This document shows, one piece after another, positions 1-61,054 of a stretch of 64,000 bases of DNA. The position numbers were made by a program, and so were the translations under genes. The notes beneath the pieces are model-generated. The model had not been told where the DNA came from and ran no database searches. It saw nothing but the letters and a program-made list of their open reading frames with translations. Within the stretch, counting starts at the first letter, position 1. The number at the start of each line of letters is the position of its first letter. The DNA comes from Pseudomonas phage HPP-Temi: sequence record PP968062.1. The stretch is one strand, 5' to 3'.

Positions 1-993
1 GTCGAATATTTTGCGACGGGTATTAGCGTCTTCCAGCTTGCCATACAGAGCGTTAGCAGTTTCTTTCATAGTCGAAGCGGAAACTACAGCAATGTTGGAT
101 GCATCAGCCATGGATACACGGCCAGTCTGAACAGACTTGCTCAGGTTGTTACGACGGCGATCAGTGATTTCCTTGTAGACACCAGACTTGTCACTTACCA
201 GAGCAGCGAAGTGAGCATCGATCATATCCTGACCGAGAACGAAGTCGCGCCAGAAACGAATCTGACCAGTCTTAACCAGGAAGAGGCGATGACCCCAAGT
301 ATCACGTCCGCCGGCACTAAAGATATGAGTAAGAGTCTGCGACGGAACTGCTGCCGGAATCAGACGAATGAGCACAGGTAGTTTTGCCTTGGCGTCACCA
401 TCGGTGATTTCAACGTTCAGCAGCTTACCAACAGCGAGGTTCTCAGTTTCGTATACTTTCTGGGTATCGCCCGAAGACATACGAGGAGAAGCTTCTTTCT
501 TATCACCTTTCTTACGATCATCGTCTTTCGATTGTTCGAATGCTTCTTGCGAGTATTCGGCAATCAGTTCAGGACGGATCTTTTGGTTGAACGATTCCAG
601 AGACGGGAAACCGTTCTGGTAGTTCTCTTTGGAGAACACAGCGCCACTAACATCAGCACCGATCGAACGGTACGGGTTCAGGCTGTCGAATACTTTGAGA
701 GTATCGATCTTACCAACACCAAGTACCATGTTAACAGCTTGCAGATAATATCCAGCGAACTGGCTCAGTGCCATCTTCAGGATATCTTGCATGTACGGTT
801 GGTCGACCAGAACGCTATCAATGATAGCGAGAGGCTCAACCCGACACGGGCGAGTCAAATCGGCAAGAGAGTTGATCTCCATGCTATTTTTGGTCGCATT
901 AAGGACTGTGGTCATAAGACCTTTAAAAGCTTGGCTACCGGCAGCAGCACCCGCTGCGCCAGCCATAGCACCAGCTACGATTGGTAGTGGCAT
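1..993 (-). CDS. hypothetical protein, N-terminal portion (gene continues beyond window start); Gly/Ala-rich N-terminus MPLPIVAGAMAGAAGAAAGS
   Basis: Minus-strand frame open from ATG at 991-993 to window edge; SD-like AAGGAAG about 8 nt upstream; plus-strand ORFs here are short and overlapping. Confidence 0.55.
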   Translation of the reverse strand, partial: MPLPIVAGAMAGAAGAAAGSQAFKGLMTTVLNATKNSMEINSLADLTRPCRVEPLAIIDSVLVDQPYMQDILKMALSQFAGYYLQAVNMVLGVGKIDTLKVFDSLNPYRSIGADVSGAVFSKENYQNGFPSLESFNQKIRPELIAEYSQEAFEQSKDDDRKKGDKKEASPRMSSGDTQKVYETENLAVGKLLNVEITDGDAKAKLPVLIRLIPAAVPSQTLTHIFSAGGRDTWGHRLFLVKTGQIRFWRDFVLGQDMIDAHFAALVSDKSGVYKEITDRRRNNLSKSVQTGRVSMADASNIAVVSASTMKETANALYGKLEDANTRRKIFD

Positions 994-8400: not shown

Positions 8401-10113
8401 ATGAGTGATGATATTTCTTTTAGTAAAGAAGATGTAGTTGGTATCGAAGCTAAACATATTACTTACGTTACCGACCGTAACCATCGCAAGCATGACTTGC
8501 ACGTTGTTAAAGAGGTCATCCATCTTAAGGACAAGCGTCGGATTCCTCGTCTCCGTTTTATTGAGGATTATGAACGTCCTTGGTGGTTGGACCCTGAGGC
8601 CAACAAGAAAGAAGGGCAACGTTCTTACACTGAGAAGAAAGACTACGAATATGAGAAGAAACTCCTCAAACGTAAGTCTACTCAAATTAACATGCCGCAC
8701 GCTATCGCTAAAGCTCTTGGTGATTACAGCATGGGTCCTAACCCACGGATGCGTCAACTGAGTCGTAGTCCTTATCTGTACGGTTCTGACGTTAGCTCTG
8801 TTTGCTATCTGAAGAACGACTATCGAATGGCTGCTCCTGATCTGATCTCTCGTAACACTGTCGCTGGTGGCGACATTGAGACCAACGTTTACGAAGATGG
8901 TAAAGATGGTGAGATCATCTGCATGTCCGTATCGTTTAAAGATAAAGTCTATCTGGCTTATCTGAAACGTTGGGTAAGTGACCTCAAAGATCCTATACAA
9001 GAAACCTTTGATGAACTGGAACGTATCCCTGAGTTGGTTGCTCTTCGTAAGGGACGTAATCTGAACATCGAGATCGAAGTAGTTGATCAACCGGTTCACA
9101 TCGTAATTAACTGCATAAAGCGTCTCCACAAATGGAAGCCTGACTTCTTCTCCTTCTGGAACATCAGCTTCGACATGAGTCGAATCCTGAAAACTCTGGA
9201 AGACGCTGGTGTTGATCCGGCGGTTGTATTTAGTGATCCGTCTGTACCGGCTAACTACAAGTACTTCCACTTCCGTCAAGATCAAGCGATGACCACTACG
9301 GCATCGGGTGTAACCAAGTCTAAAGGTCCAGAAGACCAATGGCACTGGATTACTTGCCCTGCATCTTTCCAACCGATCGATGCGATGTCTACTTACCGTG
9401 TAACTCGTCTGGCTAAAGGTAAGGAACCGTCTTACGCGCTTGATTACATTCTGAAGAAAGAACTCAACGTCGATGAAGATGCTGAGATTCTGGGTGAAGG
9501 TGATCTGGTTAAGTTCCAGAAAGGTCTCGACAAACTGTTAGCTGAACGTCCGGGTAGTTATCCTTATCTGTTCGTTAACTACAGCGGTAAAGAAGATGAC
9601 TGGACTCCGGTTGAACACTTCACTTGGGGTGACACTGTAAACCTGGGTAACCATGTTCGTTACACCATGAACTTTGGTAAGCTTAAGTTCCCTGAAACTG
9701 ATCACCTCGGAGGGATCGAATGGCACATTGAGATGCAGAAGAACCACAAGGTTCGTTATGGTCTTTACAACATCATCGACTCCATTCGTCTGGAGCAACT
9801 CGATGAGAAGATCAATGACCTTGCCAGTTCTATTACTCTGTTCTCGAAGTCTTCCGACTATAAGAACTTTAGCTCTAACCCGAAGCGTCTTTGTGACGAC
9901 ATGCACTTCTGGTATCTGAACCGTCCTGAGCCGTGTGTCATTGGTACTAGCTCTGACCAAATGGTTCACGAGCTCGATCAGTACGTAGTGGGTCACGATA
10001 GCTGGATTGTTACACTGCCTTCTTACATGGCTGGTCCGAACGGATTGAAGTGTGTTAAGGACTTACCTGATTACAAGACTTTGATCTTTAGCCACGTAGC
10101 TGATTTGGATTAA
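8401..10113 (+). CDS. family B DNA polymerase, N-terminal 3'-5' exonuclease part (split polymerase)
   Basis: Exo I GGDIETN, Exo II FWNISFDMSRIL, Exo III SYALDYILKKEL with typical spacing; SD AAAGGAA upstream of ATG. Confidence 0.65.
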   Translation: MSDDISFSKEDVVGIEAKHITYVTDRNHRKHDLHVVKEVIHLKDKRRIPRLRFIEDYERPWWLDPEANKKEGQRSYTEKKDYEYEKKLLKRKSTQINMPHAIAKALGDYSMGPNPRMRQLSRSPYLYGSDVSSVCYLKNDYRMAAPDLISRNTVAGGDIETNVYEDGKDGEIICMSVSFKDKVYLAYLKRWVSDLKDPIQETFDELERIPELVALRKGRNLNIEIEVVDQPVHIVINCIKRLHKWKPDFFSFWNISFDMSRILKTLEDAGVDPAVVFSDPSVPANYKYFHFRQDQAMTTTASGVTKSKGPEDQWHWITCPASFQPIDAMSTYRVTRLAKGKEPSYALDYILKKELNVDEDAEILGEGDLVKFQKGLDKLLAERPGSYPYLFVNYSGKEDDWTPVEHFTWGDTVNLGNHVRYTMNFGKLKFPETDHLGGIEWHIEMQKNHKVRYGLYNIIDSIRLEQLDEKINDLASSITLFSKSSDYKNFSSNPKRLCDDMHFWYLNRPEPCVIGTSSDQMVHELDQYVVGHDSWIVTLPSYMAGPNGLKCVKDLPDYKTLIFSHVADLD

Positions 10114-10162
10114 ATATACGTAAAGATGATATTTCCTGTTATTGTATACAGGAGATATTAAC

Positions 10163-11497
10163 ATGATAAATAATGACATGCGTTACTTACCTCACTCTGG
10201 TCGACGGTATATGGTCAGTCGTTGTGGTAAGGTGTATGATACGAGTGGTATTGAGATAAAGCCTAATGGTGGTAACGTCAGATTAACTTGGTTAAATGGC
10301 GACGATAGTTATTCGGTGGGCATGTTAGTAATTGTAACATACCAGCCTATATACCTACCTGATCACCTTTGGATAAAAATCGAACCTCTTCATCTAGATT
10401 GTGACCCTAACAATAATCATGTCGATAATTTGCGGTATCGTTTCGTAAATGGTAAATTGGAGTATGAAGCAATTCCAGGCTTCTACTATATTCCACATTA
10501 CACCAAATATGTAATCGATATTTACGGAAATATGCTCACTGCTGAAAATGGCAGAGATAAGACTTGGGGTTATGTAAAGTCAGATCTAGAACGTAATTCG
10601 AAAGGTGGATACAGATTTACACGAGTCGTTAATGAACCCGGTGTTAATTCTGTGCTACTTAGACATAGAGCGTTGTGTTTTGTGTTTAAACCAGTTGAGC
10701 GTGCAAGTGATTATGACTTGCTCGTAAACCACATTGATGGCGTACCAGGTAACGATAACTTAGACAATTTGGAATGGGCGACGTATGCAGAGAATAACAA
10801 GCATGCTCACGCCAACGGTCTAAGTGGTGGTAAAGCTAAAGGTGTACTGATGCGTAATATTGAAACCGGTGAACTGAGTAAATTCGCAACCACTAAAGAG
10901 GCGGCGAAAAGTCTTGGGCATGGTTCCAATGCACAAATACGACATCGCTTAAGACATGGTCAAACCATCCACTATCTCGATAATTTACAATTCAAATGGG
11001 ATGATGGTACCGACTGGCTGGATGTGGATATAACCACACCTGCTATTGAATGTAAAATCGGTACAATGATGGCTTCTCGAAATGTCTTAACTGGTGAAGT
11101 CAGAACTTTCGGATCATTTGAAGAAGGTGAGAAATTAACTGGTATTGACAAACAGACGATTGCAATTCATATTCGTGATAATCAGATTGTTCCTTTCCAA
11201 GGTTTTAATTTTGGTTGGTACAAAGAAGGCATGGAATGGCCTATTCATTCTGATATTAACATGAAGGCCTACAAGAAATATCCGACACGTACGCCTGACC
11301 CAATTATTGTGGAAGACATGATACTTGGGGATAAAGTAATCGTGGAAAGTAGGAATGAATTAGCTACTCTTCTTAAGATCAGTCCCAGTTATGCTACTCA
11401 ACTTGTGTCAAACGCAATGATTTATCAGGATAGGTACAAAATGACCTATCATCGTTTACGTGACAACATTTTAGTCCCATCAAGTTGGAATACTTGA
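10163..11497 (+). CDS. HNH homing endonuclease (HNH + AP2/NUMOD-like DNA-binding region)
   Basis: Motif NHIDGVPGNDNLDNLEWATYAENNKHA (H-N-H); SD AGGAGAT before ATG 10163; markedly AT-rich compared with flanks. Confidence 0.8.
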   Translation: MINNDMRYLPHSGRRYMVSRCGKVYDTSGIEIKPNGGNVRLTWLNGDDSYSVGMLVIVTYQPIYLPDHLWIKIEPLHLDCDPNNNHVDNLRYRFVNGKLEYEAIPGFYYIPHYTKYVIDIYGNMLTAENGRDKTWGYVKSDLERNSKGGYRFTRVVNEPGVNSVLLRHRALCFVFKPVERASDYDLLVNHIDGVPGNDNLDNLEWATYAENNKHAHANGLSGGKAKGVLMRNIETGELSKFATTKEAAKSLGHGSNAQIRHRLRHGQTIHYLDNLQFKWDDGTDWLDVDITTPAIECKIGTMMASRNVLTGEVRTFGSFEEGEKLTGIDKQTIAIHIRDNQIVPFQGFNFGWYKEGMEWPIHSDINMKAYKKYPTRTPDPIIVEDMILGDKVIVESRNELATLLKISPSYATQLVSNAMIYQDRYKMTYHRLRDNILVPSSWNT

Positions 11498-11835
11498 TGC
11501 AAACTTCTTTAATTGCCGGGGAAATCCTTAGAGACATGTACACCAAATCCATGTAGTGATACATGGACGGCCAGATTAACTACCTGGGTATGGTAAAAGA
11601 GACATGTATTGGGTGATCCGCAGCGAAGCTTCTCTCTGAGAAGAACGTTCAACGACTATCGAAACCACTGCGCAAGCAGACAAGGGAGTAGAGTAGGATC
11701 AAGTGATCCGAAATGGGAAGCATCCGATCCTCGCAAGAGAAGGATGGTGATATAGTCTCCACATCCAGGGAAAGCCTGGAGCAGCACGTTATAGTGCGGA
11801 TAGAGCGTAACGAACTCTATCGAAGATACTGGATT
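11498..11835 (+). ncRNA. group I self-splicing intron catalytic core (P3-P9)
   Basis: P element AATTGCCGGGGAAATCC 11511-11527; Q GATCCGCAGCG 11615-11625; R GTTCAACGACTATCG 11646-11660; S GATGGTGATATAGTCTCC 11744-11760; P7 GACTA/TAGTC; P9 hairpin CCAGGGAAAGCCTGG 11765-11779; close matches to Tetrahymena/T4 consensus elements. Confidence 0.8.
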
Positions 11836-12063
11836 GTCAGTACTTATCCGAACGTTAGCCAGATTCTCAACATTGCTCGGGAAACAACTGTCATGGAATT
11901 CTCCATGATGAAAGATATCTCTGAGCATCATCGTCGAGAAGTAGGGGTGAACTTAACTGGTGGTCGTGTCAACGCTATTGAGATCTGCCAGAAGATCATG
12001 AAAGCTCCGAAGTTGGATGAGATGTTGAAGCTCTACATGGAGAAGAAGGCTAACTCCCCAAAG
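11797..12063 (+). CDS. putative downstream exon or displaced 3' gene segment (frame of ORF 11713..12066)
   Basis: Only open frame after intron core; candidate 3' splice sites after G at 11781/11796/11832; start coordinate uncertain. Confidence 0.3.
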
Positions 12064-12094
12064 TAACATATCGATGGAAACGCCGCGGAGGATA

Positions 12095-32112: not shown

Positions 32113-32148
32113 CAACTGTAATATAGATCTGAGATATTTTTTAATGTC
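32113..32148 (-). promoter_or_regulatory. early-type promoter motif (minus: AAAAATATCTCAGATCTATATTACAGTTG)
   Basis: Contains TATATTAC, the reported phiKZ early promoter core; upstream of 30508..32085. Confidence 0.65.
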
Positions 32149-37793: not shown

Positions 37794-39260
37794 TTAAGCT
37801 GCTTTCGCCAACCATTCCTCCAAAGACGGAAGATAGTCTTCGTGAGCATAGTTGATGATCGTTTCTACAACCGGACCTTGGAGTTCCAGGTTACCAGAGA
37901 TCTCGTGTGGATCATCCGGACTCAGTACCCAAGTATGCGGTGCGATTCGTTCAGTTGCATCAGCCAGATAGTTATCGGGCATCAGCGTCAAGTTCAGCTG
38001 GTCACCATCGAAGTCGGCGTTAGGTGCTTTCAGGCACAGTACCGACATGCTGATGGAGTTATCTCGAATGTCATTCTTAATAACGGTGATGAAGAACTGC
38101 TGTGTCGAACCACGTTGCAGAGTCGGGTTACGGTGGAACACACACGGAAGACCTTTGTACTTCGATTCTGCAATGATCTCTTTAAACAGCTGATCCAGGA
38201 CTTCGTTGTACTTCAGGACGTTCTCGTAGATGAACGAGTTCGCTTGGCGAGTCGTCATACGGAACTTGCGTTTCAGTTTGTTGATCAGGTGATACTTCAA
38301 CAACTGACAGCCGACGCCCCACGGAATGTGAAGTTCATCGTAATCATGCGGGTCACTAATGGAAGTAATTACCGCACGAGCAGTCAGGTTAAGACGACCA
38401 CCCAATACGTGCCTACGAACCAGACCAGGCTTTTGCGCGATCCGTTGTTTGTCGTAGTTCTCATGGAAGATAGCCAGAAGCTTCAGTGCACGAGCTACAC
38501 GGTTTTGTACAGTGATTGGTTTCAGCGGGATTGCCGAACTGCCGATACTACTAATAGTCAGTACCGCATCGATTGCTGCGCCGATCGGCTTATCGATGTA
38601 AACACCCGAGGTCGTAGACTCTACAACGAAACAGAGTTTAGTTGGGATCGGAATGTTCTTCGGGAACAGGTGTTCTTTGTTTTGGTTAACGAATGCAGCC
38701 ATCTCACCTTTGTTGGTGTTGATGATACTGCTATCGAGCAAGAACTGGAAGATCGTATCGAAGTTCTGAACGAAGTTGTTCAATCCACGTGGGAACTGGC
38801 GAGCCAGCAACTTGTCGAGTTTCCGTTTGGTTTCTTTCGAACTGATCGTATCGTAATCAAACTGATACTGCGTGTTGGTCAGATACTCCAGGAAGTCGAA
38901 CTCTTTCATCGACATGTATCCTGAAAGCATAATCCACAACTCGGGACTCACCAGACGATCCACCCCTTCCGGTGCCCGAATCCACATCGAAGGAACGATG
39001 GGTCGGTTGCTCGTGCTTACTACTGGTGTACCACAGTTATCACAGATTACCCCGAGCTTGTATGCTTCCGTGATATGTTCACAGTCACACGATGCCGAGT
39101 TCTCGATCGCATCTGCATCCTGATAATGGGAGAACAGATAACGTTGGAATTCCTCCTTTTGTTCAGCATTGCTGGTATTGAAGTCGTTTGCGAATACTAC
39201 TTTACCTCTTTGGTTAGCGAGCATTTCGTCATGATTGACAACCTGAGCATATAGACCCAT
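37794..39260 (-). CDS. multisubunit RNAP beta' subunit, N-terminal segment
   Basis: Catalytic motif CLKAPNADFDGDQLNLTLMP (NADFDGD) near C-terminus; Zn-finger-like Cys cluster near N-terminus. Confidence 0.85.
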   Translation of the reverse strand: MGLYAQVVNHDEMLANQRGKVVFANDFNTSNAEQKEEFQRYLFSHYQDADAIENSASCDCEHITEAYKLGVICDNCGTPVVSTSNRPIVPSMWIRAPEGVDRLVSPELWIMLSGYMSMKEFDFLEYLTNTQYQFDYDTISSKETKRKLDKLLARQFPRGLNNFVQNFDTIFQFLLDSSIINTNKGEMAAFVNQNKEHLFPKNIPIPTKLCFVVESTTSGVYIDKPIGAAIDAVLTISSIGSSAIPLKPITVQNRVARALKLLAIFHENYDKQRIAQKPGLVRRHVLGGRLNLTARAVITSISDPHDYDELHIPWGVGCQLLKYHLINKLKRKFRMTTRQANSFIYENVLKYNEVLDQLFKEIIAESKYKGLPCVFHRNPTLQRGSTQQFFITVIKNDIRDNSISMSVLCLKAPNADFDGDQLNLTLMPDNYLADATERIAPHTWVLSPDDPHEISGNLELQGPVVETIINYAHEDYLPSLEEWLAKAA

Positions 39261-39282: not shown

Positions 39283-39321
39283 ACAAAAAAAGGAGATAGA
39301 AGCGGCTCCCGAAGGAGCCGC
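39283..39321 (-). terminator. intrinsic terminator: hairpin GCGGCTCC-cgaa-GGAGCCGC followed on minus RNA by UCUAUCUCCUUUUUUUG
   Basis: 8-bp stem + T7 tract, downstream of the 621-aa gene, upstream of beta' N gene. Confidence 0.75.
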
Positions 39322-39653
39322 CTTATCTACTATCGATGGACCACCAACGGAGCCTGGCACGATCCTAGCATCGTCTACAAAGCTTAACCTCCGCTCTTCT
39401 CTGTAGCACTTTGACACTAGAACCTTTTACCATCCATCGTTGTTTTGATCACACGTTGCCTTTTGAGCAACTCCTTTCGGTTAAGTGATCGATCACGCCC
39501 GTGTAGCGAGAGGTCGACCTAGACTTTACGTCCACTAGACGATTACTTCGCGGAACCTACTCCTAACCGTTATCACCGAAGTGAACCAGGGTCGCAGTAT
39601 TTGAATCGGGATGCCAGCCTTCTGACACCCCTATCAACCGGGGGAGTTGTTTC

Positions 39654-41519
39654 TTAGTACAGAGTACCAACCGAACCAGCCATGTTCAGCTGGTAGCCAC
39701 CACCAACGCCCATGCCGTTGACAACCTGAGCGGTAGAACCGACAGCGAAGTCTTGAATCATGGTGTTGCCGGTGAAGCGCTGAGCACCGAATACCTGAGC
39801 AACGTTGTCCATTGCTACGGTCAGACCGGCAGCAGCGATCGCCTTATCCAGACCCTCGATGAATTTCGGGTTGAAGATACCGCGATGTGCACGGGTGGTG
39901 TAAGTTACAGCGCCCAGGAACGCACGGTCGTAGTTCTTGGATTGCTTGTTGCGCAGTTCCGGATGAATGTTCGGGTTGCACTGAGTACCGTACCAGGACA
40001 TCCACTCTTGCTGGTTGCCTTCTGCGGCGTTCAGAGCACCGAGAGCGTCGAGGTCACGACGGTCACGTTTCTCATCGCCATCCCAGTAGTAGCCCTTGTT
40101 GATTTCGGTACCAGTCGATGCAATGATCGGCTGGGTGTTGAAATCGAAGAAGCGCTCGAAGCCGCCACCAACCAGGTTCTGTACAGCGCGAATGATCGCG
40201 GCAGTAGCTTTCTGTTGGTTCGGGCCACCCATGGCATCCAGGAAGATCACGTCCAGAGCCGCGTTGTCGCCCATGCGGTCCAGGTCGATCAGGAAGGACG
40301 GGTTCGGACGAACCATGCTCAGCATCAGATCAGCGAAGTTCTGATCGGTGAAGGTGTCGGACTTGGTATCGATCTTCTTGTTCAGGTTGGACAGCCAACC
40401 CAGAGCACCGATGTCACCGAGGTCCTTCACTTTACCTACCTGAGGCAGGAACTTACGAGCCCAAGCCTGACCAGCAGTTACGCGGAAGGCGTTCGACAGA
40501 GCGAAGAGATACAGTTCCAGAGTGTTTGCCTTGATCCAGTTCGCCTGACGAACGTCAGTGATCAGGATCGCCGGGGAGAACGGCGGCAGCGGTTGGGTCT
40601 GTTGACCGAACATCTGGGCTTGCGGAGTCGGAGTGTACTCCAGGGTTACCTGTACCGACACCTGGTTCAGCATGGTGTCTGCTTCGTAGAACTCGTTCTC
40701 TTGCTGACCTTGCTTCTTGGTGCGGTTCAGGCTAACGAGGATGTCCGACTTGATCGGGTTACCAACGCTGTCCATTACCGGACGACCGGAGAAGTCCATC
40801 TTGGCAGCCAGGGTTTCGTCTTGGCCACGCAGCATGGCGATCTGGAACGGAGTCTCGCCAGCTTTCTTCGCCAGAACGTCATCACACAGGTTGACGGAGC
40901 GAATCAGGATGTCTTTCAGCAGGACTTCATCTTTCAGATCGAATTCAGCCGGGATCGGCAGCGGACCGGCCGGGTGTACTTCAGCCTTCGGACGACCGGT
41001 GGTCTGACGAACGAAGTCGCAGATGCGGTTCCAGTACTGAACGGTGAAGACGTCTTGCACTTCAACGTCAACGTCGAAGCGATCGTGGCTCATGCCGTTT
41101 TGAATGGTCACTTGGCGAGGAGCCAGGGTGATTGCCGAGTTCGGCATGATCAGCGGACGAACAACGATGATGCCGTTGCCACCAGCTGCATGCTTGACGA
41201 TCAGCAGAGCGGAGTAGCCAACGCGGTTAGCGTCGCGGTCGAAACGCAGGATCTGGAAATCGTTTTCCAGGTCTTGATGGTCGATGGCATCTTTGCCAAC
41301 GCGGGTCATTACTTGCAGAGCTTCGCTCGCACGGGCGTCGCCGCCATCAGTACGACCGGAGCGTTTGAACATGTTCGGCAGGCCGGAGATACCGCCTTGC
41401 AGAGTTTGAGGAGCGGATTGTTGCATGCGAGGAGCTTCCTGTTGTGCGCGCGGAGCAGCTTGAGCCGGACCGTTGTTGGCTTGAGCTTGGGTGTTTTGAG
41501 CGTCGGTATCACGAATCAT
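39654..41519 (-). CDS. candidate chimallin (phage nucleus shell protein) / major early protein
   Basis: 621 aa; disordered Gln/Ala-rich N-terminus; immediately upstream of nvRNAP beta' N gene as phiKZ gp54-gp55; early-type promoter; host-like GC-rich codon usage. Identity not confirmed by motif. Confidence 0.5.
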   Translation of the reverse strand: MIRDTDAQNTQAQANNGPAQAAPRAQQEAPRMQQSAPQTLQGGISGLPNMFKRSGRTDGGDARASEALQVMTRVGKDAIDHQDLENDFQILRFDRDANRVGYSALLIVKHAAGGNGIIVVRPLIMPNSAITLAPRQVTIQNGMSHDRFDVDVEVQDVFTVQYWNRICDFVRQTTGRPKAEVHPAGPLPIPAEFDLKDEVLLKDILIRSVNLCDDVLAKKAGETPFQIAMLRGQDETLAAKMDFSGRPVMDSVGNPIKSDILVSLNRTKKQGQQENEFYEADTMLNQVSVQVTLEYTPTPQAQMFGQQTQPLPPFSPAILITDVRQANWIKANTLELYLFALSNAFRVTAGQAWARKFLPQVGKVKDLGDIGALGWLSNLNKKIDTKSDTFTDQNFADLMLSMVRPNPSFLIDLDRMGDNAALDVIFLDAMGGPNQQKATAAIIRAVQNLVGGGFERFFDFNTQPIIASTGTEINKGYYWDGDEKRDRRDLDALGALNAAEGNQQEWMSWYGTQCNPNIHPELRNKQSKNYDRAFLGAVTYTTRAHRGIFNPKFIEGLDKAIAAAGLTVAMDNVAQVFGAQRFTGNTMIQDFAVGSTAQVVNGMGVGGGYQLNMAGSVGTLY

Positions 41520-41586
41520 GATTTGTTCCTATGTTTGTAACGTTTCTTGATCAAGAATGAGATCCAACAGTGTATTGGATTCAAAA

Positions 41587-41617
41587 CTGTTATATAGATC
41601 TCAGATTTTTTTTAATG
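41587..41617 (-). promoter_or_regulatory. early-type promoter motif (minus: CATTAAAAAAAATCTGAGATCTATATAACAG)
   Basis: 68 nt upstream of ATG 41519. Confidence 0.6.
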
Positions 41618-41808
41618 CATTATAGACCGGAGGACCCGCTATAAAAGCAAGGTCATTTGAGGACAGTCAGTCTTCACATACTGTATTACATATTTGTTTC
41701 CTTAAGATTCAAACTCAGTATGCTGAGTACTGGGGCATAGCTCAAATAGCAGGTCAGGACCTCACGGTCATTTCCTGTATTAAATAACTAGCCCCAGTAT
41801 TTCTTTTC

Positions 41809-43368
41809 TTACTCTTCGGTTGGAAGGTCAAAGAAGTCGTCTACGTTACCTCGGATACCGTGAACGATTGCGGCTGCTTCTTTACGAGAAGTTGCTTTAG
41901 CCAGTTGAGTAGCGTGCCGAATGAACACGTCCGAATACTCCTTCATCAGGGTGAGTTCCTGAGAACTGAGCTTGTCAGACTTCTTACCCAGTTGCTCTGC
42001 GATCTCACGGAGACCCGAAAGCCCATGACGAGCTTCCAACTTACCATTGACCACGCTATCGCGAACGAAAGCTTTAATGATGTCGAATGCCCAGAGGCGT
42101 TCTACGTCATCAGTGATCTTGGTGAAGTCAATCGACATCGGGTCACGGAAAAATTCCCCGCGACGAATGCTATCAGCAGAAAGAGCGGAAATTCGCATAG
42201 AGCGAGTGTTACCACCTTCCTTATTGATCGCATGCGCTTCTTTGGTAATGCGAGCCGATTCATCGATCAGGAGTTGAGCGATAGACGGACCAGCGAACTC
42301 TTCACGCAGTGCTTTGCGGTCAAGTTCATCTTGAGTCGGTTCAAGACTGGTAGTAAGGCGTTGTGCAATAGAAGGACGAGCCAGATCTTCCGGGCGAAGG
42401 ACCAGCTTGTCTTCTGCTTCTGCGTAGTACATGTCAGTCAAACCAGGGTTCTGGAGCTGATTATTGATATTGGTGCTGTGTTCAACACCATTAACAACTT
42501 GGTCATAGCTCCGGAAAATAGAGGGAACAGAACGCAAACGGGTGTTGAAATCCTTGCTATTAGCAATTGGTTCAAACGGAACATTGGGAGGGGAGTTACG
42601 TTGAGTACACTCGATAGCTTTGTTTTCCATACGACCGCTACTAACAAGCCACTCTTCGAACATGACTCCATTGATCTGACCTTCGGCACAGCACTTCTTA
42701 TAGAAGCTGATGTACTTTTGGTAGGTATGTACACGGAGTCGGAATGCTTCTCCGTAATGTTCCATCAAATGGTTAACAAGGGGTTTGATGGTAAACAGAG
42801 GTTGAGGGGCATTGCTCTGGTTTTTGATGTCACCTTTCAAGGCCTTCGCCAACTCACGCAAGAACTTGACGTTGTAAGTGCAGAAGTCAGCGCAGGATTC
42901 CGGAGGCAACAGCATACCACAGATTTCGGTAATGGCTTCAGCGATCAGTTCTTCATCGGTGTTACCGATGTTCAGGTATTCGTCCCGTTGATCTACACCT
43001 TCAACCAGTTCAGTATAACGCCCAGATTCCAGAAGCTCGATACCTTTAGTGCGATTGCACCACCAGTCTTCGAACAGAGAATCACGAGTACCGGGAGCCT
43101 TCAGGAAAGAATCGTAATGCTCAATCATTGCTTGGACGCGATCCATGGTAGTCTTGGCGAACTGGGCACGGATGTGGCGATCAAGGGTATACGGAGAGAC
43201 AGAGATGTCCGGAATGTTTTCCATCAGTTCGTTGAACATCGCTGTAACGAACTTCGGATTCTGGGTAGCAAAGAGCTGGTGATTCTGGGCACCCATAGTT
43301 TGATGGAAGAAGCGATCCATTGCGGCGGTAACGATAGCGCGCCGATGGGGAGTATAACGGTTATCCAT
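41809..43368 (-). CDS. hypothetical protein (519 aa)
   Basis: Long ORF; early-type promoter upstream. Confidence 0.75.
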   Translation of the reverse strand: MDNRYTPHRRAIVTAAMDRFFHQTMGAQNHQLFATQNPKFVTAMFNELMENIPDISVSPYTLDRHIRAQFAKTTMDRVQAMIEHYDSFLKAPGTRDSLFEDWWCNRTKGIELLESGRYTELVEGVDQRDEYLNIGNTDEELIAEAITEICGMLLPPESCADFCTYNVKFLRELAKALKGDIKNQSNAPQPLFTIKPLVNHLMEHYGEAFRLRVHTYQKYISFYKKCCAEGQINGVMFEEWLVSSGRMENKAIECTQRNSPPNVPFEPIANSKDFNTRLRSVPSIFRSYDQVVNGVEHSTNINNQLQNPGLTDMYYAEAEDKLVLRPEDLARPSIAQRLTTSLEPTQDELDRKALREEFAGPSIAQLLIDESARITKEAHAINKEGGNTRSMRISALSADSIRRGEFFRDPMSIDFTKITDDVERLWAFDIIKAFVRDSVVNGKLEARHGLSGLREIAEQLGKKSDKLSSQELTLMKEYSDVFIRHATQLAKATSRKEAAAIVHGIRGNVDDFFDLPTEE

Positions 43369-45037: not shown

Positions 45038-46207
45038 TTAAGCCTGTTCACCTTCCGGTACAGAGACTTCTTCAACCGGCTTCAGGGGTTGACCATCAGC
45101 ACGTTCTTGGAACTTGTCCAGAAGACGCTTTTGGTAATCCGGGATAGCCTGACCAGATACAGTCTCAACGAAAGAGCTCAGAGTGTGGTTCTTGAGGATC
45201 TCGCGTTTAATACCGTCTTGGGTCTGAGTTTGAATCTGACCCAGCTTAGCCAAGATAGAACCACCCATCAGAGCTTTCACCATACCAGACTTACAGTTGG
45301 TGATATGCTTAGAACGCTTGGCACCTTTCTTTTTCTTACGGCGGGTACGCATGCGGGATTCGATCGAATCGATTTCGGTCGGCTCAGCTTCAACAGTTTC
45401 CATTTTGCTCAGGTGTTGTTCCAGAAGGTCAGTAGACATTGCAGATTCAGTATCAGTAGATTCCAACATGATGTTGTTATGTCCTAGTTCACGAAGTTTA
45501 TTGTACATGTAGAGACGGCTATTCGTTTTGGGAATGTCGTCCAATACAGGAGAGGAAATGATTTGGAGTTCGCCCGGTTTGAAGCCCTTGGTGAAAACGT
45601 CGTTAATACTCAACCATTCAGGAGGAGTAACGATACCATCGAACTTTGGCATTTCATTACATTCGGTATCGTAGGTGGGTATCTTTTTCATAAGTACCTC
45701 ATGTCGTGTACCAGGTAGTTCACCGTTTTTGCTGATCAGGTTATTGTACTGGGTCCATAGTCTTTGGCTTTGCGAAGTTGTCGATCTTGTACCATGCAAT
45801 ACCCAGCTACGACGAACCAGGGTCATACCAGCCCAAAGAGTTTCTAGTTGATCCTTAGAGAGTTCTTCATGTTCTTTCATGAAGTTAGCGATAAGATCAT
45901 CTAATTCTTGGAGTTCATCCGGTAGATATCCTGCAAGTGTATAACCTGAGTAAGAATCTGTAATCAGTTTGCCTTCCGGAGCGAATGCCTGACGTAGAGC
46001 AACATCAAAATGGCAGTACATGTTGTAATCCAACAGTAATGCTTGTTCCATATAGGGGTAGTCTAAGCCAAGTGTACAGATCTTTGCGAAACGGCTAGCT
46101 CCAGGTTGAGCAATCTCACCACATAGATTACCATCCAGTACATTGTAAGTACCGAAAGGAAAAGATACAACTTCTTTATTTTGCGTTGGATTGGAATTAT
46201 ACATCAT
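45038..46207 (-). CDS. hypothetical protein (389 aa; basic KRKKKGAKRSK segment)
   Basis: ORF track; preceded on minus strand by hairpin+TTTATGTCG about 30 nt before ATG. Confidence 0.7.
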   Translation of the reverse strand: MMYNSNPTQNKEVVSFPFGTYNVLDGNLCGEIAQPGASRFAKICTLGLDYPYMEQALLLDYNMYCHFDVALRQAFAPEGKLITDSYSGYTLAGYLPDELQELDDLIANFMKEHEELSKDQLETLWAGMTLVRRSWVLHGTRSTTSQSQRLWTQYNNLISKNGELPGTRHEVLMKKIPTYDTECNEMPKFDGIVTPPEWLSINDVFTKGFKPGELQIISSPVLDDIPKTNSRLYMYNKLRELGHNNIMLESTDTESAMSTDLLEQHLSKMETVEAEPTEIDSIESRMRTRRKKKKGAKRSKHITNCKSGMVKALMGGSILAKLGQIQTQTQDGIKREILKNHTLSSFVETVSGQAIPDYQKRLLDKFQERADGQPLKPVEEVSVPEGEQA

Positions 46208-46436: not shown

Positions 46437-48617
46437 TTAGTAGAAGTCGGAGATCAAACGGGTGTTACCTTTATCGATCAAGAAGATACCCAGGGATTCA
46501 AAAATCAAGTAGAACACACCCATGGTGTTGGAGATGATCGTGCGAACATCAGCTACACGGGTAATCTCATCGGGAATACCGCGGTTTTCCACAACTGTCA
46601 TCGGAACGTGGAAGTTGGCGATACCAGTCTTGTTGTTTTCCATTGCCCAACGTTTAAGGCGCATGGCAAGACCTTTATCTTCGATAGTCTCAACCCACTC
46701 ATTAAAGCGAGTCTTGTTATCGGTTGTTACAGAGATCTTGACGAAGCTGTACGGAGGTTCTTCGATTTCACCAAACGACGGGCTGCAAACTTCTTTCCAG
46801 AAAGTGTGCTTAGCATAGGTGGCGTTATCTTCAGACTTGTACGCATCGATCTTCTTGCACTTACCGGTGGTGAGGTATTCAGCTTTACCAGAACGAACCG
46901 AAGCGATGATGTCACGTTCCAGGTCTGCTACTTCTTTCAGCATTGCGGGAAGATCAAGTGGCTCTTCTGCTTTAATGGACTTAATGATGTCATCCATCAT
47001 CCGCTTAGCAGTCTTGTTGATCTTCGGTGGAACTTTAGAATCTCGCAGACCTACACCTTTAACTTCCATACGAGCTTTAGCGAACATTACGCCCTCCTGC
47101 GCGTCCTGAGACGCGTAATAGTGTTTTGAACGTGTGGTCAAGGAAAGTACAGCGAAGTAGTATTCGTTCTTCATAGCCAACAAACGGAGCTTCTCTTTCG
47201 ATACGCCCATGTTAGCCGACTGAATGGCGAGGATGTGTGCAACCACACAGGACACCAGGAACACCAATGCAAACACCAGTCGCTTAGCTTCAGCGGTAAA
47301 GGTGATCTTACCAAAGAACTCTTCTACCCAGTACTGCATGGTAAACATCGTGGAGTCAGTGTCGGAGATGACAGCTGCGCGGCGGTAAGCAGTTGGGAAA
47401 GCATGAATGCTAGAAGGTACGTTCTTGGTCAGAAGGAGAGCATCAATCAAACGCTTGTATTTCCACAGCGTATCAGAGATGTTCTTACCTGTTGCATAAA
47501 TCGTGTCGAATACTTCAGGGGATTCTTTGCTCAGCTTATCATAGTTCCGACCTTTAACCAGATCGAAGCAAATGAAGTTAGCCAGGAGTTGCAAGTCACC
47601 ATCGTAAGTGTTGTAAACTTCTTTGGTAACCTTCTGTTCGTCAGTACCTAGTTGAGCAAGCTCTGTCAGGAAACTACGAATCAAAACTTTGTTGTGTTTG
47701 TAGACATGATACAGATCGCCAACATACATAACAGCCGCACGCTGCAATGGAGTGAAACCAGTAACCAACATCCGAATCTGTTCAGTGTAGTCACGATTCT
47801 GCCAGTAGTGCGCTGTGGAATACAGAACCATTTCAATTACTTCATCCGGAGTCGGGTAATGCATATTGAAATGATCAATGCAATCTTTCAACTTCTTCAT
47901 GTCGGTGTTGTTAGCAATCGACAGAAGGTTGGCTTTGGTAATCTCCGGACTATAGTAGTGGCGATTACCAGTGATGAACTTCTCGTTATTCGCGTTAGCA
48001 TACGAGGTTGCAGTACGACAAGTAGACGTCAAGCTGGAGTGAGTCGACTTGTAATACAGAATCGTTGCCGCGCTTACGGTTGCTCCACTGTAGGAGTTAT
48101 TGTTAATTTTGAAGTTTTCTTGTTCGCCTTTGCGAACCTGTGCGAGTTCAGCTGCTTCCGGGGTACCTTCACCCTCAAGACGCATTTGTTCTTTCTTAAC
48201 ACGTTTACGGTTTGCTACACCTTCAGCGATATACTGAGAGTGGGTAGACTGGCGCTGAGATTCCGGAAGATACACGGTCATACTCGGCGACAGCAAAAGA
48301 TTCTGTTTTTCTACACGGCCTAAGAAACCCATGAAGGTGGTTTCTTTCAAACTACGATCGCCTTGAGGATTCTTGTCTAATATCAAGGTCTTTGGATTGT
48401 TCAGGGCAAACTGACCCTGAGGGCGAGACTGTTCCTTCACAAACTCCAAGCAGGTTTCAAATGGATCCCCCGTCATCGCGGAGATGTACAGAGCTTGATC
48501 GTTAAGATAACCTTCGATGATGTTCAGGTCACGGGTGTAATCTTCAACCGGCAACAAGAACGGGTTAGGAGTGCTGATCTGGTCCATATTTCCTCTCTTA
48601 AAATTTAATCTTTTCAA
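46437..48617 (-). CDS. family B DNA polymerase, C-terminal polymerase part (split polymerase)
   Basis: Motif B-like KINNNSYSG and motif C AVISDTDSTMF (DTDS); 726 aa. Confidence 0.65.
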   Translation of the reverse strand: MKRLNFKRGNMDQISTPNPFLLPVEDYTRDLNIIEGYLNDQALYISAMTGDPFETCLEFVKEQSRPQGQFALNNPKTLILDKNPQGDRSLKETTFMGFLGRVEKQNLLLSPSMTVYLPESQRQSTHSQYIAEGVANRKRVKKEQMRLEGEGTPEAAELAQVRKGEQENFKINNNSYSGATVSAATILYYKSTHSSLTSTCRTATSYANANNEKFITGNRHYYSPEITKANLLSIANNTDMKKLKDCIDHFNMHYPTPDEVIEMVLYSTAHYWQNRDYTEQIRMLVTGFTPLQRAAVMYVGDLYHVYKHNKVLIRSFLTELAQLGTDEQKVTKEVYNTYDGDLQLLANFICFDLVKGRNYDKLSKESPEVFDTIYATGKNISDTLWKYKRLIDALLLTKNVPSSIHAFPTAYRRAAVISDTDSTMFTMQYWVEEFFGKITFTAEAKRLVFALVFLVSCVVAHILAIQSANMGVSKEKLRLLAMKNEYYFAVLSLTTRSKHYYASQDAQEGVMFAKARMEVKGVGLRDSKVPPKINKTAKRMMDDIIKSIKAEEPLDLPAMLKEVADLERDIIASVRSGKAEYLTTGKCKKIDAYKSEDNATYAKHTFWKEVCSPSFGEIEEPPYSFVKISVTTDNKTRFNEWVETIEDKGLAMRLKRWAMENNKTGIANFHVPMTVVENRGIPDEITRVADVRTIISNTMGVFYLIFESLGIFLIDKGNTRLISDFY

Positions 48618-61023: not shown

Positions 61024-61054
61024 CTAGGTAATATAGATCTAAGATTATTTTTAC
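61024..61054 (-). promoter_or_regulatory. early-type promoter motif (minus: CCAATAGTAAAAATAATCTTAGATCTATATTACCTAG)
   Basis: Contains TATATTAC core. Confidence 0.6.

Follow-up and report, generated by a model that had tools for sequence, protein, structure and literature searches.

The 64,000-nt sequence from Pseudomonas phage HPP-Temi (PP968062.1; this whole stretch is called the window below) carries on its minus strand, at 39654..41519, an open reading frame (ORF) of 621 aa with an ATG start. By homology, its product is chimallin (ChmA/PhuN), the major nucleus shell protein of the phiKZ-like Chimalliviridae jumbo phages. The gene family is already known and well characterised, and this gene, as far as its sequence tells, is a further ortholog and ordinary in itself. 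Between it and the downstream gene of the beta' N-terminal subunit of the non-virion RNA polymerase (RNAP) lies a non-coding structured RNA of ~330 nt plus terminator (39285-39649, minus strand), which seems to be undescribed. Covariation in the aligned sequences shows selection for the structure of this spacer RNA. We tentatively propose, at somewhat short of even confidence, that the spacer (39334..39642 and the terminator down to 39285) represents an undescribed modular family of structured RNAs in nucleus-forming P. aeruginosa jumbo phages, whose domains D1-D3 are kept by compensation and shuffled between genera, which regulates the chimallin-to-polymerase ratio or acts as a stable non-coding RNA (ncRNA), and which marks genetic exchange between genera.

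The original prediction, made from the letters of the sequence, had put the gene forward as a candidate chimallin, and the profile and structure-database searches support it overwhelmingly. The product matches Pfam PF25677 (Chimallin_Phikzvirus) with 1086.5 bits (cutoff 27), residues 1-621 corresponding to profile positions 1-627 of 627, and matches no other Pfam family; among PHROGs it matches 4795, 'nuclear shell protein' (3.9e-199). A sequence search against all of the PDB gave four chains, namely 8FNE (phiPA3 PhuN; 5e-262), 7SQQ and 8IGG (201phi2-1 chimallin; ~3e-202) and 7SQT (Goslar chimallin; 1.6e-15). Using tblastn against 50,697 phage genomes, 117 records were matched, each in exactly one place, and no second chimallin homologue was found by tblastn within the 64-kb window. 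Nothing turned up that speaks against the chimallin identity.

The closest relatives are the chimallins of PS119XW, PA1C, BRkr, phiHQ, HHBS36_1 and phiLBG22, with 97% amino-acid identity (tblastn), and the PS119XW ortholog (gp054) is named 'nuclear shell protein' in RefSeq. In the first five of these, the Pawinskivirus group, the protein also has 621 aa, the nucleotide identity is 94%, and the flanking genes, promoter, leader, element in the 3' untranslated region (3' UTR) and terminator are as in the window. Identity falls to 66% for phiPA3 PhuN (81% similarity over 588 aa), 56% for Phabio, 53% for 201phi2-1, 48% for phiKZ gp54 and 22-29% for the Erwinia, Ralstonia and Goslar relatives. The exact protein sequence is absent from a collection of 15 billion proteins. 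Window positions 1-25000 are only ~83% identical to the nearest genomes and the phage is therefore a species separate from the PS119XW group; by sequence it is a species-level relative of Pawinskivirus, near PA1C and PS119XW and distinct from them.

Judged by homology, no part of the chimallin architecture is missing from the protein. The 201phi2-1 chimallin consists of an N-tail (1-47), an N-terminal segment (NTS; 48-61), an N-terminal domain (62-228), a GNAT-like (GCN5-related N-acetyltransferase) C-terminal domain (229-581) and two C-terminal segments, CTS1 (590-611) and CTS2 (622-631). Its self-assembly needs NTS and CTS, which dock onto neighbouring protomers and give a square lattice (Laughlin et al. 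2022, PMC9365700). We carried these borders over through a seven-genus protein alignment (A4), in which all six segments align without loss. The N-tail (aa 1-44) is predicted to be disordered and is Q/A-rich as anticipated, with 10 Q and 9 A among the first 45 residues. It is followed by the NTS (aa 45-58; invariant R53 and G55, R-S-G motif kept), the N-terminal domain (aa 59-223; 53% identity to 201phi2-1), the GNAT-like C-terminal domain (aa 224-571; 59%), CTS1 (aa 580-601; 45%, with the invariant QRF-G) and CTS2 (aa 612-621), whose last residue is aromatic (Y). The linkers and CTS2 are merely 10-12% identical to 201phi2-1. On the strength of these conserved segments the lattice mechanism is transferred by homology, so that protomers would form C4 tetramers by NTS docking, and the flexible CTS1 and CTS2 tails would tie the tetramers together into the square lattice of the phage nucleus.

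For phiPA3 gp053, the deposited start seems to be placed 25 codons short. An in-frame upstream ATG (locus L007 3072-3146, equal to NC_028999.1 ~39571-39645) gives a protein beginning MSIRDSEN, in keeping with the conserved MIRD N-terminus that the window protein has in common with those of 201phi2-1 and Phabio.

Since the C-terminal domain of chimallin has a GCN5-related N-acetyltransferase fold like that of AtaT toxins (PMC9365700), the ORF could in principle encode something other than the shell protein, whether an active acetyltransferase, a relative of toxins, or a paralogue that has diverged to another role. The match to chimallin runs over the full length and includes the assembly tails, identity to annotated shell proteins reaches 97%, and the gene is single-copy, syntenic and without similarity to another Pfam family. 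Family, tail, copy-number and synteny evidence effectively refute this reading, and its probability is close to nil.

The composition of the gene is unusual within the window, in agreement with the GC-biased codons described before. Both its GC content (0.564; z = 3.4) and its GC at third codon positions (GC3; 0.658, z = 3.0) are the highest of the 53 window ORFs of at least 120 aa, and the 1-kb GC profile of the window has its maximum (0.567) at this gene. The high GC3 may have arisen as an adaptation to the GC-rich host that favours very high expression early in infection. A 595-aa ORF on the plus strand (39753..41540) runs across the entire chimallin gene; it was rejected as a gene, because the high GC3 of chimallin produces such an antisense 'shadow' ORF as a by-product.

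As predicted earlier, the gene has its own early-type promoter. At 41589..41613 (minus strand) a run of eight A is followed by TCTGAGATCTATATAAC (also written AGATCTATATAAC), which resembles the early promoters used by the virion RNAP of phiKZ. Three copies of the motif A[GT]AT[CT]TATAT[ATC]AC are present in the window, where 0.05 are expected; all lie on the minus strand, and they end at 32118, 41589 and 61028. The promoter block 5' of chimallin is also found in phiKZ, 201phi2-1, Phabio, D6 and phiPA3, and in a looser form in Noxifer. Its phiKZ homologue is the early promoter P028, whose transcription start site (TSS) at 45583 lies 8 nt past TATATTAC and 65 nt ahead of the gp54 ATG (Putzeys et al. 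supplementary tables; Wicke et al. 2021). With the same spacing, the chimallin TSS would be near 41581 and the leader (41520..41581, minus strand) ~62 nt long; the leader that had been predicted stands, and the 68 nt given for it come near this length and are slightly too many. A scan for sigma-70-like promoters upstream of chimallin found none, as expected because the phage does not use the host RNAP. Judged by this motif, its mapped phiKZ homologue and the GC3 value, chimallin may be expressed early and very highly from a virion-RNAP promoter.

The other two full copies of the motif (32118-32130 and 61028-61040, minus strand; an A-run then AGATCTATATTAC) presumably drive other early transcription units. 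In phiKZ, the middle promoters P026 and P027 lie farther upstream of gp54 than P028 (Putzeys et al.). A candidate second promoter of middle type is found in the window at 41677..41690 (minus strand), where TGTAATACAGTATG resembles the 3' end of the sequence upstream of phiKZ P027 (...GATTGTAATAATATG, TSS 45490), and Phabio has a similar block upstream of its chimallin gene. Judged by this resemblance, 41677..41690 may be a middle-type promoter.

In its predicted fold, the leader begins with a variable hairpin (41580..41561), and an AGGAA Shine-Dalgarno sequence stands ~8 nt ahead of the ATG. Between them lies a perfect palindrome, CTTGATCAAG at 41555..41546, extended to TTCTTGATCAAGAA at 41557..41544 (minus strand), which occurs nowhere else in the window. 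This palindrome is invariant in six genera and is located 41-44 nt from the promoter motif in all of them, for example in phiKZ (L002 2875-2884), 201phi2-1 (L003 2852-2861), Phabio (L004 2831-2840), L005 (2839-2848) and phiPA3 (L007 3032-3041). Its flanks covary, so that the palindrome ranges from 10 to 18 nt; it measures 18 nt in Phabio and 14 nt in each of the window, phiKZ and phiPA3. A dimeric protein could bind here, or the transcript could form a hairpin whose loop is GAUC; the conservation of the palindrome apparently has not been described.

At the other end of the unit, the strong terminator that had been claimed is real and of the phiKZ type, and it lies ~330 nt past the chimallin stop codon, not directly after the gene. 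This intrinsic terminator (39285..39327, minus strand) has the stem GGCGGCUCC-UUCG-GGAGCCGCU at 39322..39301, after which come UCUAUCUCC and U7 (39291..39285); in its extended form the stem occupies 39327..39295 and is followed by UCC and U7. The predicted fold of the region has -25.4 kcal/mol. The conserved terminator class of phiKZ is a hairpin followed by a TTAT-like region (Putzeys 2024), and the window terminator agrees with it in having a GC-rich hairpin, a YTTAT-like stretch and a U-run. A simple consensus scan did not detect it, since the short stem and the U-run do not directly adjoin. In 7 of 7 genera the chimallin unit is closed by a terminator of this design, with a GC stem, UUCG loop, pyrimidine-rich stretch and U-run.

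The next gene is that of the non-virion RNAP beta' N-terminal subunit (37794..39260, minus strand; 488 aa), which places chimallin immediately upstream of it, as gp54 stands to gp55 in phiKZ and as the original prediction had stated. The product matches Pfam RNA_pol_Rpb1_2 and phrog_2987 (628 bits), is 67% identical to phiKZ gp55 and contains the NADFDGD motif. Its ribosome-binding site (RBS) begins ~15 nt past the U-run of the terminator, and RBS and ATG (39260) lie within ~25 nt. The order chimallin then beta' is kept in phiKZ, phiPA3, 201phi2-1, Phabio, D6, Noxifer and PS119XW, a synteny in seven genera. In 201phi2-1 an extra ORF (gp106) stands ahead of the beta' gene. The window copy is intron-less and intact, unlike two of its relatives: in PS119XW the gene is split by a group I intron (75.7 bits; L001 6319-6624, minus strand), and in phiKZ gp55 is broken at the catalytic motif by an insertion bearing an HNH gene (gp56; L002 6448-7468). 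Both interruptions are located just ahead of the catalytic NADFDGD.

The phiKZ gp54 unit agrees with that of the window in its early promoter type, leader palindrome, 3'-UTR element, terminator and downstream beta' gene, and its transcription has been mapped. The intrinsic terminator T025 at 47888 ends the homologous spacer; the transcription units TU040, TU043 and TU045 contain gp54 alone and end at T025, and TU041 and TU046 read through into gp55-gp59 (Putzeys et al.). As no TSS was mapped between 45583 and 49168 (Putzeys et al.), gp55 is reached only by reading through T025. For the beta' gene of 201phi2-1 no promoter was found either, and the nearest early promoter, ~3 kb upstream, has the position of the chimallin promoter. 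The logic of the unit, established by analogy from the sequence plus the published phiKZ mapping, would be an early promoter, an abundant chmA message and read-through to beta'. In this scheme, the injected virion RNAP would start at one early promoter of phiKZ type and transcribe chmA through the ~62-nt leader, most transcripts would end at the intrinsic terminator ~330-370 nt past the stop, and a minority would read through into the beta' N-terminal subunit gene, which would have no promoter of its own. Chimallin identity and expression scheme taken jointly, we regard this explanation as highly probable.

The spacer between the two genes is conserved in a manner different from the genes around it. 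By megablast, phiKZ-type genomes match the region solely in the non-coding stretch past the chimallin stop, with 85-88% nucleotide identity in the spacer. In sliding profiles against phiKZ, the coding sequences are 45-65% and the spacer 83-89% identical, and against phiPA3 the values are 65-85% for coding sequences and 42-54% for the spacer. The block of high identity starts 8 nt past the chimallin stop and ends at the terminator. Substitutions by codon phase (20/17/14) have no periodicity, the indels are 1, 2, 2, 2, 1 and 1 nt long, and no stop-free stretch is common to the three lineages. Small protein-coding ORFs, which are annotated under the spacer in some records, were rejected for this lack of phase bias and the frame-breaking indels.

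Folding energies compared with shuffled sequences gave z = -5.15 for the window spacer and z = -3.43 for the phiPA3 element. A 14-helix model was obtained starting from RNAalifold, with two long-range pairings in the 3' half (161-166/309-314 and 214-224/295-308) dropped in favour of the local helices P8 and P10, because only P8 and P10 show double compensation and support from phiPA3. The MAFFT alignment of phiPA3 to the element was mis-anchored, and curated helices with an Infernal alignment were used instead. The model contains 13 G.U pairs, therefore the structure belongs to the chmA sense strand.

Besides the terminator, three domains are distinguished in the model, all on the minus strand. 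In D1 (39498..39642), the three arms P2-P3, P4-P5 and P6-P7 meet in a junction that is closed by P1 and has the invariant joining strands GGUUCC and UACA; the arms have isomorphic folds in phiPA3. D2 (39447..39490) consists of P8 (GAUCAC/GUGAUC) around UUAACCGAAAGGA and the hairpin P9, and compensatory changes are found in both P8 and P9 across three lineages. D3 (39334..39439) is formed by P10 (CGAUGGAU/GUCCAUCG), which closes the long hairpin P11-P13. D1 and D3 are likewise supported by covariation.

The substitutions in nine Pawinskivirus and phiKZ-type sequences strongly preserve this structure. The 96 model pairs are paired in 99.8% of cases, with 2 of 864 cells broken. Where only one side changed, the pair is always wobble-compatible, and double compensation is seen in seven pairs, each from a different helix, compared with 0-1 in slid controls. 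A covariance model of D1 and D2 (R1), built from the Pawinskivirus and phiKZ-type lineages alone, recovers the phiPA3 element end to end (63.5 bits, E ~3e-16), and gives no further match in the window or in the 201phi2-1, Phabio, D6 and Noxifer loci at E <= 10. In the three-lineage alignment fitted to the structure model (A6), 97.5% of cells are paired and 11 pairs are doubly compensated, versus 0-1 in slid controls and 0 of 500 shuffles.

The element is found once per genome and only in P. aeruginosa jumbo phages, from the three genera Phikzvirus, Pawinskivirus and Miltoncavirus. A pattern scan of IMG/VR found it in PA7 and phiPA3 only, and it is missing from both the JGI metagenomes and a set of 185,579 genomes of bacteria and archaea, where all 57 relaxed-pattern matches were rejected by R1. 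A host-derived or widespread origin of the element is rejected by these scans. Among the 4227 families of Rfam 15, it matches none at E <= 1 beyond two chance-level matches of the terminator hairpin (E 0.6-0.8; 17-22 bits versus gathering thresholds of 45-55), and ARAGORN detected no tRNA or tmRNA in the spacer. A group I intron was also considered and rejected: RF00028 does not match the spacer, although it recovers genuine introns in PS119XW and in the window (11446-11781), and the element is located between genes, not within one. In the papers searched, we found no described RNA between gp54 and gp55. GOLLD and ROOL are large ornate RNAs with multiple domains and conserved junctions, and the likeness of the present element to them is one of analogy only.

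The modules of the element appear to move between genera. In SL2, T2P and PA7, which are phiKZ-type, 6 of 6 fixed differences within P11-P13 show the Pawinskivirus state, compared with 0-1 of 39 outside, so by alignment 39361-39428 (A3 columns 225-292; loci L039, L045 and L019, respectively) is a recombination tract between jumbo-phage genera. D2 is the sole module present in 4 of 4 variants.

Long chimallin 3' UTRs of other sequence occupy the spacer position in 201phi2-1 (L003 4786-4990, ~205 nt) and Phabio (L004 4765-5048). These two have a common first hairpin, UGGGAUC-GAAA-GGUCCCA, and are unrelated to the window element. Long structured chmA 3' UTRs may thus be a recurring feature.

As to the function of the spacer, we think it quite conceivable, though not to be called probable, that the ~330-nt RNA acts in cis as a 3'-UTR or intercistronic module. 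In that role it would shield the very abundant chmA mRNA at its 3' end and, together with the terminator, determine how much transcription proceeds into the polymerase gene. Several observations weigh against this view. In phiHQ, unlike in the window, D1 is swapped for ~310 nt of unrelated sequence (L103, PV029745.1 261150-261950, at ~375-680, minus strand), with D2, D3 and the terminator retained. Synteny, promoter, leader palindrome and terminator of phiPA3 PhuN (gp053) are as in the window, but its element retains only D1, in expanded form, and D2; D3 is different, and the P6-closed arm has 166 nt versus 46 nt in the window. D6 and Noxifer have the terminator alone. Moreover, the covariation comes from only three lineages and was tested on the very sequences that had yielded the structure, and the window TSS and read-through behaviour are transferred from phiKZ. 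Since modules are lost or swapped between phages, no single module is indispensable; such dispensability does not argue against a role in fitness.

Three other explanations of the spacer were weighed against this evidence. A stable trans-acting ncRNA, cut from the chmA transcript and serving as sponge or decoy for an RNA-binding protein of host or phage or for a defence system, would account for the invariant single-stranded joints (GGUUCC, UACA and UUAACCGAAAGGAG), the several conserved GGA/GGAG motifs, and the discrete module boundaries with exchange between genera as a unit. Stable 3'-UTR-derived RNAs are also known from other P. aeruginosa phages, for example ncRNA1/2 of PAK_P3, which lie in the 3' UTR of a phage gene without a TSS of their own, like the window element. 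However, the spacer region is absent from the ncRNA lists of phiKZ by Grad-seq and by ONT-cappable-seq, the latter limited to fragments < 250 nt, no internal TSS exists in the phiKZ spacer, and host genomes have no homologue; we consider this explanation somewhat unlikely. A spacer without function, whose likeness to phiKZ results from recent horizontal transfer of neutral or selfish DNA between co-infecting phages, is less likely again. It agrees with the incongruent phylogeny (the genes are nearer to phiPA3 and the spacer far nearer to phiKZ), with the recombination tract and the replaced D1 of phiHQ, and with the missing element in D6 and Noxifer. Yet the substitutions since divergence strongly preserve the structure, with the 2 broken cells and 7-11 double compensations given above, and in phiPA3 the architecture is retained although the helix sequences differ greatly, its P4/P5 arm being wholly different in sequence and the same in fold. 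Transfer and selection can also both hold.

The spacer could finally be a riboswitch-like or protein-binding sensor, which would tune read-through of the terminator and time beta' expression; of the three we give this the lowest probability and regard it as very unlikely. The layout is classical for such a device, as a large structured RNA is followed by an intrinsic terminator and, ~25 nt on, by RBS and ATG, and the phiKZ beta' gene is served by read-through only. Alternative pairings of GAUCAC with GUGAUC or GUGGUC are also suggested by RNAalifold. On inspection, however, the terminator stem was seen to have no conserved antiterminator partner, the upstream GGCUCC repeat is missing in phiPA3, double compensation among the alternative helices is confined to the local ones, related genera have the terminator without any sensor, and no Rfam riboswitch was matched.

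Two further observations concern other genes of the window. The DNA polymerase gene (8401-12066, plus strand) is split into 8401-10113 and 11713-12066, both of which match phrog_3011, and the interruption is a group I intron (RF00028, 59 bits, 11446-11781) with an HNH endonuclease ORF at 10142-11497. Directly upstream of chimallin, a 519-aa ORF (41809-43368, minus strand) has no Pfam or PHROG match; ORFs of similar size stand in this position in PS119XW and phiPA3, and the short gp53 in phiKZ.

In summary, the gene adds one ortholog to the chimallin family and confirms that the phage, which infects P. aeruginosa, is a nucleus-forming member of the Chimalliviridae. In these therapeutic-candidate phages the chimallin unit would be the gene expressed first and most strongly, and in phiKZ the sole mapped route to the downstream RNAP gene, which encodes an essential subunit, crosses the structured spacer and the terminator. 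If the spacer RNA is functional, it would offer a new handle on how shell building is balanced against the switch to the second polymerase, and could be targeted by antisense knock-down or altered in engineered phages. The mosaic distribution of the element is direct sequence evidence of recombination between jumbo-phage genera, and the element, if this holds, would be a natural marker of exchange between genera that are thought to be isolated by their nuclei.

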